64,000 nt of DNA, from positions 188,232,001 to 188,296,000 of the forward strand of contig OZ024740.1 in NCBI GenBank assembly GCA_964016885.1, given 5' to 3'. The position numbers and the translations under genes are program-made. The notes beneath the pieces were generated by a model. It was not told where the DNA came from, ran no database searches, and saw only the letters and a program-made list of their open reading frames with translations. This DNA comes from Eledone cirrhosa. Lineage: Eukaryota. Positions 21,235-58,092 of the stretch are shown in pieces (position 1 is the stretch's first letter; each line of letters starts with the position of its first letter).

Positions 21235-21698
21235 TATTCAAAATATTAACAAATGAAAAATATTCTCATAATCAAAATATATACTTTATTATAAATATTT
21301 CAGAGGTACTGTGTTATTTTTTCAGTAAATCCTCATCAGACTCTATATATGATTTGATATATGACATACCACTACGGTCTTGATTGTTCAATTCCAGTAT
21401 TGGCAGTCAATTAGAAAAGCTCAACCTTTGCTAATACTGGAATTGAACAATCAAGACCGTAGCAGTATGTCATATATCAAATCATATATTTTGTCTGATG
21501 AGGATGTACAGAAAAAACAACACAGTACCTCTGAAATATATATAATAAAGTATATATTTTGATTATGAGAATATTTTTCATTTGTTAATAATTTGAATAG
21601 TATTAAAAACTCCATGAAAACGCTACTGTTGAGTGCTTCTAATCTATTGTAAAAATCGTATTCATTGAGTACTCAACGAACCATACTAATCTTTAGTT
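21235..21698 (+). mobile_element. TA-inserted fold-back element with mirrored hammerheads
   Basis: Arms ~21235-21405/21429-21599, tail 21600-21698; related to 31253-31626. Confidence 0.85.
21485..21554 (+). ncRNA. Hammerhead ribozyme motif (minimal type I)
   Basis: TATATTTTGT-CTGATGA-GGATGTAC..GTACCTCT-GAA-A-TATATA-T-A-ATAAAGTATA; mirror copy on the minus strand ~21281-21345. Confidence 0.7.
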
Positions 21699-26045: not shown

Positions 26046-26936
26046 GATAATAATAATAAAAATAATAATAATTTTCATTTTGCTTTTAGTATTCTGTTCT
26101 ATTTTGACTTTGCTTATTTTATTTTATTTATGCTGCAGAAAACTACGGAGATGTGTCAGAATTTGGTATAGAAATATACTAAAAATATAGATATTGCACA
26201 AAATATAAATATTATTATATGCAGAGGAAAAAATTGATAATATAGTTAGTGGCAGGAAGATTTCATGTAATTGTGTGTAGAATCTGAAGGAGAAGAACTA
26301 TGTTTAGCTCAATGTCTATATATGTATGTAGAATTATATACAGAACTGTGTTTTTAATCACATTCTAGACTCAAAACCTTGTGACAGATGCAATATGTTA
26401 ATTTTTGCATATGTCACTTAAATGTGTTCTAAGTGTGTCTATATAGTGTGCTCCAATTCTTTTACTGATTTATTTTTAGCCATTATCTGTAAGGGAGAGA
26501 TAGTGTGTGTGTTTGTTTGTATGCAAGAAAGACACATATATCCACAGATAAGGTGGTATGTATTTCTGATGTATGAAAGATACCATCTTTTATAATTAAC
26601 AAATTATCCTGAGAAAGGAGATTAATTGATAAGTACATTTGAAATGTATATATATGTGTGTTCACGTGTCTGTTTGTTTCTAGAAAGTAAATTTCTACAC
26701 TACACACCTGTATTGAGTACTGAATCAGTTAATATTTGAATAGTTTTAAATACTATGGTATTTTAAACACACATGTTAATATATATATATATATATAATA
26801 GAAAAAACGAGAAAGTTGCGTTTACATAAGAAAAATATTTATTGTGTATCGACCTGTTACACGCGTTTCGCAGAGGATTGGCTCAAGGTGCATAGATTGC
26901 TTGATTTGGTACCAACACCAGTACTTCACTACCTAC

Positions 26937-26968
<32 letters not shown>

Positions 26969-26976
<8 letters not shown>

Positions 26977-27672
26977 GTTGAGAAGGTAACACACCAGAGA
27001 GAGATATATAGTGCGTTATCAATAATACAGGGGAAAAAACCACCAGTGTATGGAATCTATAACCTATGAAAGGCAGACTATAGACACGATAATTAAAAAT
27101 ATAAATTAAAGCGTAAATAAATACCTTTATAACTATATAACACACGTACAAATCCAAAGATATGTTTCACCAGAAAATTTGTTGAAAGAAATGGTCTAGT
27201 CTCGGTTCATCAGCGTGTGTAAGGCCATACATTTCAGACAACACTAAGAGAATTTTACAATTGACTGTCCAGCTACACGTGGGAGAGAGAAGTCACAGCG
27301 TGTTTAAGGGCAGTGAACCAGTGGCCTCTGAGAGACGAACTGCTAGAAAGGGCAGCCCAAAGCCACTCAGAGAAGTGTGCTCAACCAAACAGAGATAGGA
27401 AAGACTGTTGTTAGGAGCGAAATATCACGATAAATTAACGGAGGCATAGGCCATCGTTATTCCCTGTAAATAATGTGCTCAAAGGGGAAGAGATCCTGAG
27501 CCCTTTAAAATATAATATGTTGAGAAGGTAACACACCAGAGAGATATATCTCTCTCTGGTGCGTTACCTTCTCAACATATTATATTTTAAAGGGCTCAGG
27601 ATCTCTTCCCCTTTGAGCACATTATTTACAGGAAATAACGATGGCCTATGCCTCCGTTAATTTATCGTGATA
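26969..27672 (-). mobile_element. Non-autonomous Penelope-like/retrozyme-like element with partial tandem and near-perfect hairpin
   Basis: Direct repeat 26969-27009/27511-27549 (period 542 bp); hairpin 27422-27672 centred ~27547; hammerhead inside; TA flanks. Confidence 0.85.
27140..27220 (-). ncRNA. Hammerhead ribozyme motif (type I, all three stems)
   Basis: Minus strand: ACACACG-CTGATGA-ACC..GGT-GAA-ACATATC-TTTG-GATTTGT-A-CGTGTGT; GUA cleavage triplet. Confidence 0.8.
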
Positions 27673-27840
27673 TATATATATATATATATATATTTAAGAA
27701 GCAAAGAAAATTTCAATGATACGAAAGATTTCAGGGTGGAAGTTCATGTATACACCAGGTTGGAATCCAGTTTCAGGGTGAAAATCCAATTAGAAAATCC
27801 AACGAATTTTGAGAGGTTCCCGTAAGCATTGTTATATATA

Positions 27841-28138
27841 TGTATGTAAAAAAAACAGAAATAACAACACAATTGGTACAGTATATGGAAACGCCAGCAC
27901 CAACAGTTTTGCAAGAGATGTCAACATGAATGGACCTCTTAATTTTATCTAAAGACATTTTTTCCAATTCCAACCCACCCGTCCCCTCAATCCATCTTAT
28001 TTCTCATTCTTTCTTCTGATGAAGGACTAGTGTCCGAAACGTTAAGCCCCTCTTCCTGCTATTTCAAGCATTAACCTAATATATCCCTTCCATATACTGT
28101 TCCAATTGTGTTGTTATTTCTGTTTATCTTTTACATAT
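27841..28138 (+). mobile_element. TA-inserted fold-back element with hammerhead
   Basis: Inverted arms 27841-27890/28088-28136 enclosing a hammerhead. Confidence 0.8.
28013..28046 (+). ncRNA. Hammerhead ribozyme motif (minimal type I)
   Basis: CTT-CTGATGA-A-GGAC-TAGT-GTCC-GAA-ACGT-T-AAG; palindromic stem III. Confidence 0.75.
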
Positions 28139-28186
28139 ATATATATATATATATATATATGATATATATCATATATATATATATAT

Positions 28187-30518
28187 ATGATCACCTATAG
28201 ATCAGGGGAGCATTCTAGTCAGATAGATTTTATCCTCATCAGAGGACGTGACAGATGGATGGTCGTAAACACAAAAGCCTTCCCTAGTGAGGAATGTACA
28301 TCCCAACATATCTCAGTTGTCAGCGACCTCATGGTCAGAACTAGACGAACCTGGAAACAGAGGCCAACCTGGAGAAGAAAGATCTGGAAGCTGAAAGACC
28401 CCTCAGCCAGTAACAGATTTAAACATATTTTACTCAACGCCTACGACAGTAAAGAAGAACAGATAGAGACATTCAGTGTAGAAGAGCACTGGGAGTTCCT
28501 AAAAAATAACTTACTAGAGGCGCCGGATGAGATCTGTGGCTGGAGTAAGACCACAGGCAGGAGAAGAGTGACTTGGTGGTGGAACAATAAGGTAGATGAG
28601 GCAGTTAAGGCCAAGCGACAGGCATGGAAAAAATGGAACAACGGGGGAAGCAGGGTACATTACATAGAGACCAAGAGGGAAGCTAGGCGACAAGTATACT
28701 TAGCTAGGAGGGAAGCAGAGGATAGAAAATTCAAGCATGTTTTGCAATATGAGGACCAGAAACAGGAGGTGTTCAAGATTGCGAGGCAGTTTGTCATAAA
28801 GAATTGTGATGTCATTGGAGAGAAGTGTATCCAGAATGATAAAGGTGAGCTTGCCCTCACAAGTGCTGAGAAGAAAGATGCATGGAAGAGCTATTATGAT
28901 AGATTACCAAATGATGAGAATACATGGGAAGAAGAGACCCTACCCCAAGTAGACCCTATAGAGGGGCCAGCAGTACAAATCAGCAGCAGCGTAGTAAGTA
29001 AGGCAATCAAAGATATGAAGATGTGGAAGGCAACCAGTCCATCGGGTATAGCTGCCGACATGCTGAAGGCATCTGGGTCTGTAGGTCACACTATAACCAC
29101 ACGTATTGTTAACCAGGTAATGCTAGAAAGTGTCATACCAAAAGATTGGTGCAGTAGCATCATTCTCAACTGCTACAAAGGTAAAGGTGATGCACTAGAT
29201 AGAGGAAACTATAGAGGTATAAAGCTGATGGACCAGGTCATGAAAGTAGCAGAAAGAGTTATAGCACAGTTGATTAGGGACCGGGTGAAACTAGATGAGA
29301 TGCAATTTGGTTTTGTACCAGGAAGAGGCACCACTGATACCCTCTTCCTTGTGAGGCAGTTACAGGAAAAGTACCTAGCTAAAAGTAAGCTACTCTACCT
29401 GGCATTCGTCAATCTCGAGAAAGCCTTTGACAGAGTTCCACGTGATATAATCTGGCGGGCTCTTAGAAAACTAGGAGTAGATGAATGGCTTGTGAAAGCT
29501 GTACAAGCAATGTATAGGGGAGCAGTCAGAAAAGTTAGGATTAGCAATGAGTATAGCGAGGAATTTAGTGTACAGGTCGGTGTCCACCAGGGCTCTGTTC
29601 TTAGCCCTCTCCTGTTCATCATAGTCCTGCAGGCAATAACGGAGGAGTTTAAGACCGGATGCCCATGGGAACTCCTGTATGCAGATGACCTCGCACTTAT
29701 AGCTGAAACTATGTTAGAACTAGAGAAGAAATTCCGAACTTGGAAGCAGGGACTAGAAAGAAAGGGTCTCAAAGTCAACCTGACAAAGACGAAGGTCCTT
29801 GTAAATAGATGAGAAAACAGAACCCAGATCCCCTCAGGGAAATGGCCTTGCTCAGTATGTAGGAAAGGTGTAGGTAGGAACTCCATTCTCTGCCCCAACT
29901 GCAAACAATGGATAAACAAGAAATGTAGCGGGATCTCAGGAAGCTTAATTAAGAATGTAGGCTTCACATAGTAGCAGCTGTGCTGGGACAGCAAGCAGCA
30001 AACAGCCACAGGAAACAAGTACCACCAATCTCTGGGAGGGCTCTGTAGAAACAGTTGACAGTTTCTACTACCTAGGTGACCGAATTAGCAGCGGAGGTGG
30101 TTGTTCAGAAAGTACAATAACTAGGGTAAGAACGGGATGGAAGAAGTTCAGGGAGTTACTGCCAATGCTAGCTGCAAAAGGCTTTTCCCTCAAAATGAAA
30201 GGCAGATTGTATGATGCGTGTATACGAACAGGAATGTTACATGGTAGTGAGACCTGGGTGCAGAAGATGGAAGACTTACATAGATTAGAAAGAATCGAAG
30301 CCTGCATGCTCCAATGGATGTGTAATAGTAATATTTGCGAACGGCAAAGCATAAATGAATTGAGAGAGAGACTGAGCATAAGAAAAATCAAATGCTGTGT
30401 GCAAGAGAGGCGGTTGCGTTGGTATGGACATGTTATGCATATGAAGGATGACAGTTGCATAAAAAGGTGCAGAGCGATAGAAGTCGATGGAAACCGACGG
30501 AGACCAGGGATGAGGTGA
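28187..30518 (+). pseudogene. RTE ORF (endonuclease end, reverse transcriptase, Cys-rich finger, C-terminal domain), disrupted
   Basis: 541-aa ORF with NYRGIKL, QFGF, LEKAFDRV, GVHQGSVLSPLLF, LLYADD; in-frame stop at 29812 and further stops/frameshift downstream. Confidence 0.9.
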
Positions 30519-31254: not shown

Positions 31255-31626
31255 ATATAAATATTAATAAAATAGATGTTCTTTTGATCAATTACATTTT
31301 ATTATACATATTTCGGATGTACAACAGTACGTCCTCATCAGACAAAATATAATTGTTTCTACGAATATAATGATACATAACATACCCTGAGATGGGTTAA
31401 CATCTCAGGGTATGTCATGTATCATTATATTTTGTCTGATGAGGACGTACTGTTGTACATCCAAAATATGTATGATAAAATGTAATTGATCAAAAGAACA
31501 TCTATTTTATTAATATTTATATTCGAATATTAATAACTCTGGAAAATTATTCATACGTAAAGTGCTTCCAATCTACTGTAAAACTCATTCTTTGATATAC
31601 TCATTGAATTTTGTTTAACTCTTCAA
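31253..31626 (+). mobile_element. TA-inserted fold-back element with mirrored hammerheads
   Basis: Arms 31253-31394/31401-31524, 6-nt loop ggttaa, tail 31525-31626. Confidence 0.85.
31291..31353 (-). ncRNA. Hammerhead ribozyme motif (minimal type I, 12-bp stem I)
   Basis: Minus strand: ATTATATTTTGT-CTGATGA-GGACGTAC-TGTT-GTACATCC-GAA-A-TATGTA-T-A-ATAAAATGTAAT; the plus copy 31424-31486 has GAAA>AAAA. Confidence 0.8.
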
Positions 31627-31640
31627 TATATATATATATA

Positions 31641-32862
31641 CTAGTTTGTAGGAAGGAAAATCTAGTTTGTAGGAAGGAAAATAGGGCACTGGTCCCATCT
31701 GGGAAATGGCCATGCTCAGTGTGTAGGAAAGGAGTAGGCAGAAACTCCATTTTATGTCCCAAATGCAAAGTATGGGTGCATAAAAGATGTAGTGGGATCA
31801 CAGGTAAGCTAACTAAGAATATAGATTTTATACGTAGCCGGTGCTCAGCTGCAATAAGTAGCAGCAAGTGCCCACAGAATACTAGCTCATTCCATTGCAC
31901 AGATGGTTCTATAGAAATAGTGGAAACCTTCCATTACCTGGGTGACAAAATCAGCAGTGGTGGAGGGTGCTCTGTAAAAGCGGTAGCTAGAGTCAGAACG
32001 GGATGGAAAAAGTTCAGAGAGCTTATACCACTATTGGCCGCTAAAGGGTTCTCTCTAAAAATGAAAGGCAGGCTGTATGATGCCTGCATACGAACAGCAA
32101 TGTTACATGGCAGTGCGACTTGGGCATTGTGTGCAGAGGATATACGCAGACTGGAGAGGAACGAAGCTTGCATGCTCCGTTGGATGTGTAATAGTAATAT
32201 ACATGAACGGCAAAGCATAAATGAACTAAGGGAGAAATTAGGAATAAGGGGAATCAGATGTTGTTTACTCGAGAGAAGACTACGTTGGTATGGTCACGTG
32301 ATGCGCCTGAAAGACGACAGCTGTATAAAAAAGTGCAGGGCGATAAAAATTGACAGTAGCCACGGAATAGGCAGACCCAGAAAAACCTGGGACGACTTGA
32401 TAAATTCCAACCTCACACACTTACACCTCTCCAAGACAATGTCACTGGAGTGAGATCTTTGGCGCTACACAGTAATACAATATAATGCCTAAGTACAAAG
32501 CGAAACCTACAGTCAGTAGGCACCTCTAACAAAATAACCCCCGTCCCACTACCCCCACCACCATCCACACCACCCCTTTCGATGTAAAGTTATGTTGATA
32601 CCACATCCAGTCCGAAACAAATGAGGTTGTGTAGGTGTCACAAAAAAAAAACACACGCTGTAATGTGGCCGTGAAGGTAACACGGTAAAAACCTCCCAGT
32701 CCACACTGTAAACATGGTTGGTGTTAGGAAGGGCATCCAGCCGTAGAAAACCCGCCAGACAGTCCTACACAAGCAAGACAACCAATCTTGCCTCAAGTCG
32801 GAAAATTCCCGTCCAAACCCATGCAAGCGTGGAATATGGACGTTAAATGATGATGATGATGA
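31641..32862 (+). mobile_element. RTE-clade LINE, heavily 5'-truncated
   Basis: ORF 31611-32453 with Cys-rich finger and RRLRWYGHV/GRPRKTW; 3'UTR with (gat)n; TA flanks. Confidence 0.9.
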
Positions 32863-36947: not shown

Positions 36948-38150
36948 CATCATCATCATCATTTTACGTCCGCTTTTCCCTGCTTGCAAGGGTGGGATGG
37001 GTCTTATTCAGCACAGCATCTCTCCACTCGTCACGGTCCTTCGTCATCTCCAGCGTGAGCTTCAATGATCTGAGGTCGGTTCTCACCACCTCTGCCCATG
37101 TTTTTCGTGGTCTACCTCTATCACGTCTCCCTTCAACTGGCATTTCCTGGCACTTCTTCACCCATCGATCATCCTCCATGCGCATCACATGTCCATACCA
37201 CCTCAGTCTCCTCTCCCGTACACTACATTCTATCCCTCTCAGACAGAGTTTCTCTCTCAACACATTTATGCTGGGTCGTTCACGCACATTTACACTGCAC
37301 ATCCAACGGAGCATGCCTTCCTCATTTCTCTCCAGCCGTGGCATATCCTCTGCAGTTGCTGCCAATGTCTCACTACCATGCAGCATCGCGCTCCTAACAC
37401 AGGCATCATACAACCGGCCTTTCATACGCAGGGAGAAACCTTTCTTTGTCAACAGAGGAAGCAGCTCTCTAAACTTCTTCCAACCCGTCCTTATTCTAGA
37501 TACTATGGCCTCGGAACACCCTCCTCCCATGCTAATCTAATCTCCTAGGTACCGGAAGCTATCCACCACTTCTATAGCGCCCTCCTGCATTTGAAAAATG
37601 TGTCTATCAATGCGACTTCTACTGTCTAATTTCCCTGTACATCTACTGCATACATATTTCTCCCTACCTGTTAGTTTGCCTGCTATCCCGCTACATCTCT
37701 TGTGTATCCAGGACCTGCATTGTGTGCATTTTATAGAATTTATCCCAATTCCTTTTCTGCATATCGAACATGGCCATTTCCCTGACGGAATCAGGGTTTT
37801 GGCCTCTTTTCTACTCATCAACACTTTTGTCTTAGCTAGGTTCACTCTCAGTACTCTTACTTCCAACTGCTGTTTCCATAGCCAGAATTTATTCTCTAGC
37901 TCCTCTACTGATTCTGCTATAAGAACCAGATCGTCAGCATAGAGAAGTTCCCATGGGTAGCCAGTCTTAAACTCCTCTGTTATGGCTTGGAGGACTATAA
38001 TGAACAAGAGCGGGCTGGGGACCGAACCCTGATGTACTCCTACTTGTATCTGGAATTCCTCACTAAACTCCATTCCTACCCTGACTTTACTGAGAGTACC
38101 TCTGTACAAAGTTTGCACTGTCGAGAGTACCTCTGTACAAAGTTTGCACT
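36948..38150 (-). mobile_element. RTE-clade LINE, 5'-truncated
   Basis: Minus ORFs 37537-38193 (GVHQGS, LLYADD, Cys finger) and 36964-37530 (RRLRWYGHV, GRPRKTW); (gat)n tail; TA flanks. Confidence 0.92.
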
Positions 38151-38166
38151 TATATATATATATATA

Positions 38167-38253
38167 AGACACAGGTAGACCATTACTCACCAAAGTACTC
38201 GATACTTAGGGAAGTAGATTGGGTAATCTAGCTGTTGAAATGGTCGGAGCTCA
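38167..38253. mobile_element. Deleted relative of the 14017-14220 fold-back family
   Basis: agtactcgatacttagggaagtagattgggtaat joined to ctagctgttgaaatggtcggagctca. Confidence 0.6.
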
Positions 38254-57732: not shown

Positions 57733-58092
57733 AGTAAGAATATTTTCGAAACAGCGACTTGGTTTGAAATTATTAAAAATGTAAGCTATCACCGTATTTT
57801 GACTAAAGAAATTAAAGAAATTATTTAGCCTGATAGTGGGGTTAAGAACCCTCGGAGAAATGGAAAAAGATGAGTATTGACATACATGGGAGTCGAACCC
57901 ACATCTTTGGTTATCCAGACCACTGTGTTACCATTTACACCAACACATAACCAAAGATGTGGGCTCGACTCCCTTGTACGTCAATACTCATCTTTTTCCA
58001 TTTCTCCGAGGGTTCTTAACCTCACTATCAGGCTAAATAATTTCTTTAATTTCTTTAGTCGAAATACGGCGATAGCTTACATTTCTAATAAT
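57729..58092 (-). mobile_element. TA-inserted fold-back element with tRNA-like head
   Basis: Arms 57769-57914/57947-58092, tail 57729-57768 homologous to 54030-54070. Confidence 0.85.
57878..57942 (-). other. tRNA-like cloverleaf (5' acceptor strand missing), Pol III A/B boxes
   Basis: TG-GTGT-AAATGGTA-ACAC-A-GTGGT-CTGGATA-ACCAA-AGAT-GTGGG-TTCGACT-CCCAT-GTATGTCA, followed shortly by TTTTT. Confidence 0.7.

Follow-up and report, generated by a model that had tools for sequence, protein, structure and literature searches.

A 542-nucleotide hammerhead-bearing family of Eledone cirrhosa whose insertions carry a Penelope-type footprint

The window, by which we mean the whole stretch of 64,000 nucleotides of Eledone cirrhosa DNA considered here, contains a small element that is likely a single-hammerhead insertion of a 542-nt tandem family, with two arms produced by twin Penelope-like priming from one start site per strand. 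The family itself is very probably a non-LTR retrozyme, and twin target-primed reverse transcription, with one start site on each strand, quite probably accounts for its insertions. The link between retrozymes and Penelope-like elements has so far been argued from their co-occurrence and sequence relatedness, according to the accessible text of the two surveys of these elements (Cervera and de la Pena 2020, PMC7229834; Li, Clavereau and Pollet 2026, 10.64898/2026.07.22.740005); the data described below provide evidence at the level of insertions that Penelope-type machinery moves a non-LTR retrozyme.

The window copy has the following features, in which unit positions are given as q numbers counted in the hammerhead sense, with q1 = 27510 and the predicted cut after q364:

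26939 to 26967, no strand: left (TA)n target tract, by sequence inspection
26968 to 27549, minus strand: long arm of 582 nt, one 542-nt unit plus 40 nt, with the hammerhead sense on the minus strand (locus L001)
26968, minus strand: 3' end of the long arm at fixed site B (q1; locus L001)
26968 to 27007, plus strand: 40-nt direct repeat, copy 1, an overrun into the next unit (copy 2 at 27510 to 27549)
27123 to 27225, minus strand: type I hammerhead with extended stem I, by comparison of core, stems and fold
27422 to 27673, no strand: 126-bp hairpin formed by the paired arms, with 3 mismatches, by inverted-repeat comparison
27544 to 27549, no strand: head-to-head junction, a 6-nt self-complementary AT overlap, by arm comparison
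27544 to 27673, plus strand: short arm of 130 nt, with the hammerhead sense on the plus strand (locus L001)
27586 to 27673, plus strand: 88-nt "tail" spanning sites B to A, at one end only, by arm-end comparison
27673, plus strand: 3' end of the short arm at fixed site A (q89; locus L001)
27674 to 27693, no strand: right (TA)n target tract, by sequence inspection

A previous, sequence-only reading took this DNA for a 542-bp monomer with a terminal direct repeat and a near-perfect hairpin of about 125 bp. The period of 542 is correct, and the two copies of the repeat are 98% identical at that spacing, but they are merely the 40-nt overrun and not terminal repeats; instead of a monomer, the window copy consists of the 582-nt B arm plus the 130-nt A arm. 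The hairpin is equally real, its halves (27422 to 27547 and 27548 to 27673, 126 nt each) abutting without spacer and differing only at 27462, 27533 and 27545, but it does not belong to the unit, and its junction varies from copy to copy: it is the overlap of two head-to-head arms, a by-product of insertion. Both arms halt at nearly the same place in the unit (q502/504, to within 2 nt) and carry a common rare allele at q58. The (TA)n tract on both flanks would hide any target-site duplication. The unit has a GC content of 39%, its longest ATG-initiated ORF encodes 26 aa and its longest stop-free frame 70 aa; no RT plus GIY-YIG ORF between pseudo-LTRs was found in the window element. The window copy is likely a dead end for the family, a derivative whose single hammerhead does not expel the family from the retrozyme class.

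Related copies are abundant in the genome, which is AT-rich and about 3.0 Gb in size. Scoring 40 of the 2863 candidate regions returned 52 full-length matches to the unit at 98-100% identity, and the youth attributed to the element by the earlier reading agrees with a median divergence of 1.3% from the family majority (128 insertions with at least 150 sites). Arrays extend up to 4.4 units (L014), with hammerhead matches spaced 539-542 nt, and an arm is longer than one unit in 36 of the 91 simple two-armed insertions. The family thus combines the traits of retrozymes: one type I hammerhead per unit, tandem units, lack of coding capacity, GC below 45%, dispersed and recently mobile copies, and Penelope-like elements in the same genome. 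Among contigs of four runs, no empty insertion site was found by a comparison that passed over (TA)n tracts. The contigs of organism A contain many related copies; in one run (X5) of organism B, parts of the unit turn up in a small number of contigs, in some cases at 98-99% identity and in one case with a strand-switch joint, reflecting either a close relative or contamination.

Evidence for the proposed reading comes from the ends of the arms. Their 5' ends are truncated at random positions, whereas their 3' ends are fixed, falling either at q89 (site A) or at q1 (site B), 88 nt apart, with (TA)n next to them. Exact patterns of end plus (TA) occur at 368 A sites and 133 B sites, counts that overlook variant subfamilies, and control patterns at none. 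We sampled the 30 best-match loci, the first 70 of the 133 B sites and the first 70 of the 368 A sites, mostly from the first contigs, obtaining 183 clusters that were reduced to 169 once duplicates were removed. Among 106 two-armed head-to-head insertions, 94 are of A+B type and none of A+A type; one doubtful case of B+B (L024) has a long arm without TA tract behind it, and 11 have an undetermined end. Insertions anchored at A have a B partner in 41 cases, an A partner in none and an undetermined one in 3, while those anchored at B have A in 48, B in none and an undetermined partner in 2, with some insertions counting in both sets. Altogether, 94 of the 138 anchored records are two-armed and 44 single-armed at BLAST level, even if 4 apparently single B arms conceal an A arm of 10-20 nt. 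The A+B pairing rule is near-absolute in the sampled insertions, which show a Penelope-type signature: fixed internal 3' ends, an optional tail and an inverted, 5'-truncated copy in head-to-head orientation.

In mechanistic terms, this regularity raises a question: Where does the second arm come from? For rotifer Penelope elements the answer proposed has been self-priming (PMC3846280, PMC8557442, in the text accessible), namely that one cDNA folds back and copies itself, after which the endonuclease trims the second end and leaves the tail. Such a route requires one arm to lie inside the other. This is the case in 59 of the 91 simple A+B pairs, including the window copy, which is symmetric as well; however, 32 of the 91 are non-nested and 7 fully disjoint, and there the second arm cannot derive from the first, so that both arms must have been RNA-templated at least in these insertions. 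Snap-back as a general route is ruled out by the same counts. Furthermore, trimming does not account for the second end being always the other site, and the short arm in the window passes site B to end at A.

Variants shared by the arms bear on both readings. Private variants are shared by paired arms at 20 in 19,972 sites, as against 4 in 15,420 for tandem units, which speaks for self-priming, as does a variant in L052 that is confined to the two junction-side copies. In favour of twin priming from one RNA or haplotype, 20 of 144 private variants are common to both arms, compared with 85 in 66,669 between insertions, and for common variants the arms agree in 145 of 194 cases, versus 11%; the 49 cases in which they differ weigh against it (all these counts were made without the duplicates L011 and L013). 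Gene conversion between the inverted arms could add to such sharing or produce it. Symmetric junctions, which count for either reading, are in excess and often palindromic: 11 of 91 lie within 2 nt of symmetry, with 1.75 expected from permutation (maximum 8 in 20,000), and microhomology explains part of this excess, given that about half of these junctions sit on short palindromes. The 13 junctions within 5 nt of symmetry divide into two classes, A = B + 88 with 8 cases and B = A + 454 with 5, the window copy belonging to the latter. On balance, self-priming appears unlikely as the origin of the second arm.

The reading of one start site per strand can be compared with the behaviour of autonomous elements. 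The genome contains young families encoding RT plus GIY-YIG, with ORFs of 636-1096 aa, in which the cysteine motif preceding the endonuclease matches that of Neptune/Nematis (PMC8557442); according to the passage on Naiads in the same paper, this motif may help to recognise (TA)n. One such family, here called L119-type (L119, L120, L123, L128, L130, L241-L300), has a unit of about 4.2 kb with a minimal palindromic hammerhead. It has a 50-nt tail and exact sites for 1532 short ends and 1106 long ends. Its outer ends are long plus short in 27 of 27 head-to-head clusters, drawn from 100 short and 70 long sites among the matches listed (C1 up to 179.5 Mb); across 60 loci, unique pairs assigned by eye were long plus short in 21 cases, long plus long in 1 and ambiguous in 2. 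Hence, bar few exceptions, this autonomous family obeys the pairing rule seen in the 542-nt retrozyme. In 13 of its 31 two-armed loci both arms halt about 198 nt before the short end, just past a motif that we take to be a TATA-like box, and in 4 of the 31 both halt at the family's own hammerhead cut. The shared stop just past this box is likely the transcription start, which suggests that short pseudo-LTR transcripts serve as templates; coincident arm stops are what two enzymes would produce on reaching the 5' end of a single RNA.

These similarities bear on another interpretation, according to which an autonomous Penelope-like element, itself unseen, has the unit as its pseudo-LTR, and the copies are truncated ends of that element. 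Besides the identical insertion signature, the relationship of retrozymes with pseudo-LTRs in Xenopus, as described in the accessible part of the 2026 survey (10.64898/2026.07.22.740005), speaks in favour of this idea. Against it stand the exact 542 period, which is maintained up to 4.4 units without any ORF, and the sampled loci, where no recurring non-unit sequence was seen by eye 5' of the arms. Close pairs of end sites, 3-5 kb apart (L111-L115), are likewise without a Penelope ORF. We consider the pseudo-LTR interpretation decidedly improbable. Counting against the twin-priming reading, no Penelope ORF with nucleotide similarity to the unit occurs among the 40 loci searched, which comprised 20 top GIY-YIG, 15 long-ORF GIY-YIG and 5 close end pairs, a shallow sample given 10,596 candidates in total. 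The same loci provided some additional observations. At L095 there is a 68-nt family fragment alone. In L111 and L112 (G000:C3:54.96-54.98 Mb) the family copies lie inside a tandemly duplicated region, which has opposite-strand stop-free frames of up to 689 aa without RT motif, and L121 and L128 contain inverted head-to-head pairs of truncated Penelope-like ORFs, with frames of 551 and 402 aa on both strands. Stop-free RT plus GIY-YIG frames of 938, 844 and 1096 aa are found in L116 (2809-5622), L117 (1988-4519) and L118 (1775-5062), and the 97-98% protein identity among members of the L116/L117 family marks recently active candidates for the partner.

The hammerhead in the window conforms to the earlier description of a 7-bp stem I, a real stem III and a GUA triplet. 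On the minus strand, stem I pairs 27220-27214 with 27146-27140, and the sequences that we take to be the conserved core, CUGAUGA and GAAA, are at 27213-27207 and 27168-27165. Stem-loop II has 38 nt and is closed by an A-U pair, while the GUA triplet places the predicted cut between 27147 and 27146. Beyond a 12-nt bulge, stem I gains 5 further pairs and reaches 27123, just outside the interval 27130-27230 delimited by the sequence-only reading. Stem III consists of 3 bp, a U.U and 3 bp. In the minimal palindromic hammerheads of Penelope elements stem III is missing or reduced to 1-2 bp with a palindromic loop, as described in the accessible text of PMC4209133; with its 6 pairs around U.U, the present motif is non-palindromic and falls outside that type. 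About 90 sampled insertions share its core, no core position showing more than 2 changes, and the 27-nt 5' half has 234 exact matches versus 0 for the reversed pattern, so the motif is not a chance occurrence. Rfam returned no hammerhead match in the window at the gathering score, nor in 26900-28200 at E<=10, and its sub-gathering miRNA matches in the latter interval are due to the hairpin.

The sequence-only reading went further in considering this copy the best candidate for monomeric self-cleavage, a self-contained monomer with terminal repeats, an intrinsic hairpin and its own capacity to produce circles. It is true that a full unit with intact core and the above stem III is present, and that the 542-nt unit folds better than shuffled sequence (z -3.5). 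However, the copy has one hammerhead and thus one cut, and cannot excise a monomer, two full hammerheads being present in 5 of 216 sampled arms. The minimum-energy fold of the isolated motif differs from the catalytic fold (z -0.91), which lies 4.7 kcal/mol above the minimum with the window alleles as compared with 1.0 for the family majority (37 C, tertiary contacts excluded). With the hairpin junction also differing among copies, this interpretation is very unlikely.

An older subfamily, with 91 exact matches and about 86-94% identity, possesses the same two end sites as the young family. The majorities of the two differ at 29 positions (22 of 30 loci kept after removal of 8 duplicates), 10 of which are within the hammerhead and none in its core or stem I, with N7 and loop II altered; the search pattern for the older subfamily itself fixed the 5' half of the hammerhead. 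Purifying selection on the hammerhead was considered and rejected as an explanation, since 0 of 29 in core and stem I does not depart significantly from the 1 or so expected by chance. At the base of stem II the older subfamily (L211-L240) has an A.C mismatch where the young one has A-U, L237 having G-C, and its stem III is longer by 2 nt. A fortuitous hammerhead-like motif in a foldback DNA transposon or in a dispersed satellite, to which the inverted termini, the TA target and the absent Rfam hammerhead match could point, is scarcely credible in view of the fixed 3' ends with random 5' truncation that mark target-primed reverse transcription, the single-armed state of 44 of the 138 anchored records at BLAST level and the constancy of core and stem I between subfamilies while N7 and loop II changed, which is not significant alone.

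The nature of the RNA template is a separate matter. The predicted cut site is crossed by 96 of 114 arms, while 3 end no more than 3 nt from it, which rules out a linear monomer as sole template; uncleaved multimers would likewise cross the site, and so crossing alone does not show circles. At q365-380, immediately 3' of the predicted cut, the 5' ends of arms show a 3.8-fold enrichment (16/1803 vs 67/28217), with an uncorrected p of 3e-5 for a pattern that was spotted before testing and lies in a TA-rich tract. Weighing against a circle, L059 has a core mutation in both arms, and positions covered three times have rare variants in all copies in 6 cases and in some copies in 5, a split that would not be expected from a pure single-monomer circle. 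Cleavage may not even be needed, considering that the older subfamily spread with its A.C in stem II and that hammerhead mutants still insert in vitro, as reported in the accessible text of PMC11167929. A circular intermediate is plausible in the light of arms exceeding one unit and of the hairpins in which the leading enzyme would have lapped the circle, even if genomic hints are mixed, and from these sequence data we lean slightly towards a circular template for the family.

The twin-priming reading can be set out as a series of steps. Tandem copies with two hammerheads would be transcribed and self-cleave into unit-length RNA, a portion of which would circularise. A dimer of the Penelope-like RT/GIY-YIG enzyme could then bind the RNA structure that surrounds sites B and A, and is predicted to nick each strand within a (TA)n tract. 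One cDNA would begin at A on one target strand and the second at B on the opposite strand, both from the same RNA or haplotype; each would run for a variable distance, often beyond one unit, before the two cDNA 3' ends are joined with 0-9 nt of microhomology. In the window copy, an A cDNA of about 126 nt and a B cDNA of about 580 nt would have stopped at the same unit position, thereby generating a perfect hairpin. We tentatively entertain the broader possibility that Penelope-type insertion is a coordinated double event, involving one dimer, one RNA and one fixed start per strand, with the self-cleaved 542-nt circle as template. The "optional tail" and the "inverted pseudo-LTR" would then be two faces of one reaction, and on a circle perfect hairpins would form in two ways: the trailing enzyme may catch up with the leading one (A = B + 88, 8 cases), or the leading one may go once round the circle and overtake it (B = A + 454, 5 cases, with the window copy among them). 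The A+B rule, the non-nested arms and the match with the autonomous family together yield a sharp prediction for in vitro work: start sites on the two strands should be anti-correlated.

The class of element is already known, the 542-nt family being a member of the non-LTR retrozymes with a Penelope-type footprint. In the accessible text of the surveys (PMC7229834; 10.64898/2026.07.22.740005), metazoan non-LTR retrozymes are also non-coding, low in GC and tandem, with one type I hammerhead per unit, and they too occur as dispersed monomers and multimers in genomes having Penelope-like elements. A unit of 542 nt exceeds the 170-400 nt of invertebrate retrozymes but is inside the 51-972 range of the 2026 survey, and the 38-nt stem-loop II is unlike those of the published metazoan retrozymes in these texts. 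The retrozyme papers demonstrate circles, which are putative for the 542-nt family; conversely, their accessible text contains no description of insertion ends, while target, tail and inverted arms are documented here. Endonuclease-bearing (EN+) Penelope-like units share the partial tandem, the inverted 5'-truncated copy and the optional tail (PMC8557442, PMC3846280), but encode an ORF that is lacking here and have tails of 30-40 nt versus 88 nt; moreover, the pairing rule is near absolute in the present family (94 A+B, 0 A+A). The same papers, in the parts accessible, explain the tail by endonuclease resolution and the inversion by self-priming, and the formation of tandem and inverted Penelope structures is called undefined in PMC8557442.

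The Poseidon element of Anolis carolinensis studied in vitro (PMC11167929) likewise has two internal start sites bounding the tail, an AT-rich target, nicking and extension of both strands, a predicted dimer and a hammerhead away from the element end. It differs in being autonomous, in having adjacent start sites and in showing no bulk difference between strands in start site; the accessible text of that paper contains no analysis of inverted products. One-end tail, inverted copy, two internal start sites and extension on both strands are therefore already published (PMC8557442, PMC3846280, PMC11167929), as far as the accessible text goes. A strict one-site-per-strand rule, Penelope twin priming and the 542-nt family itself were not found in a search of mostly open-access literature. 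An enzyme able to write on both strands with a small non-coding RNA as template would be of interest for genome-writing work. In L1 twin priming, a second cDNA is primed from the other target strand, producing a 5' inversion; there the position of the second priming varies and the arms are free of overlap, whereas in the 542-nt family the second site is fixed and the arms usually overlap.

The window contains further elements. One at 27833-28145 is embedded in (TA)n, has inverted ends of 58 nt and carries a minimal hammerhead (28016); its arms seem to end at the same site, and it may break the A+B rule. Minimal hammerheads of other families occur at 21339 (minus), 21495 (plus) and 31341 (minus), the first two forming a head-to-head pair 156 nt apart. 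LINE-type reverse transcriptase fragments span 28163-30518 (RVT_1, E 1.6e-30), 31608-32453 and 36964-38205, and a weak tRNA match of 37 bits at 57878-57949 on the minus strand is possibly the head of a SINE.
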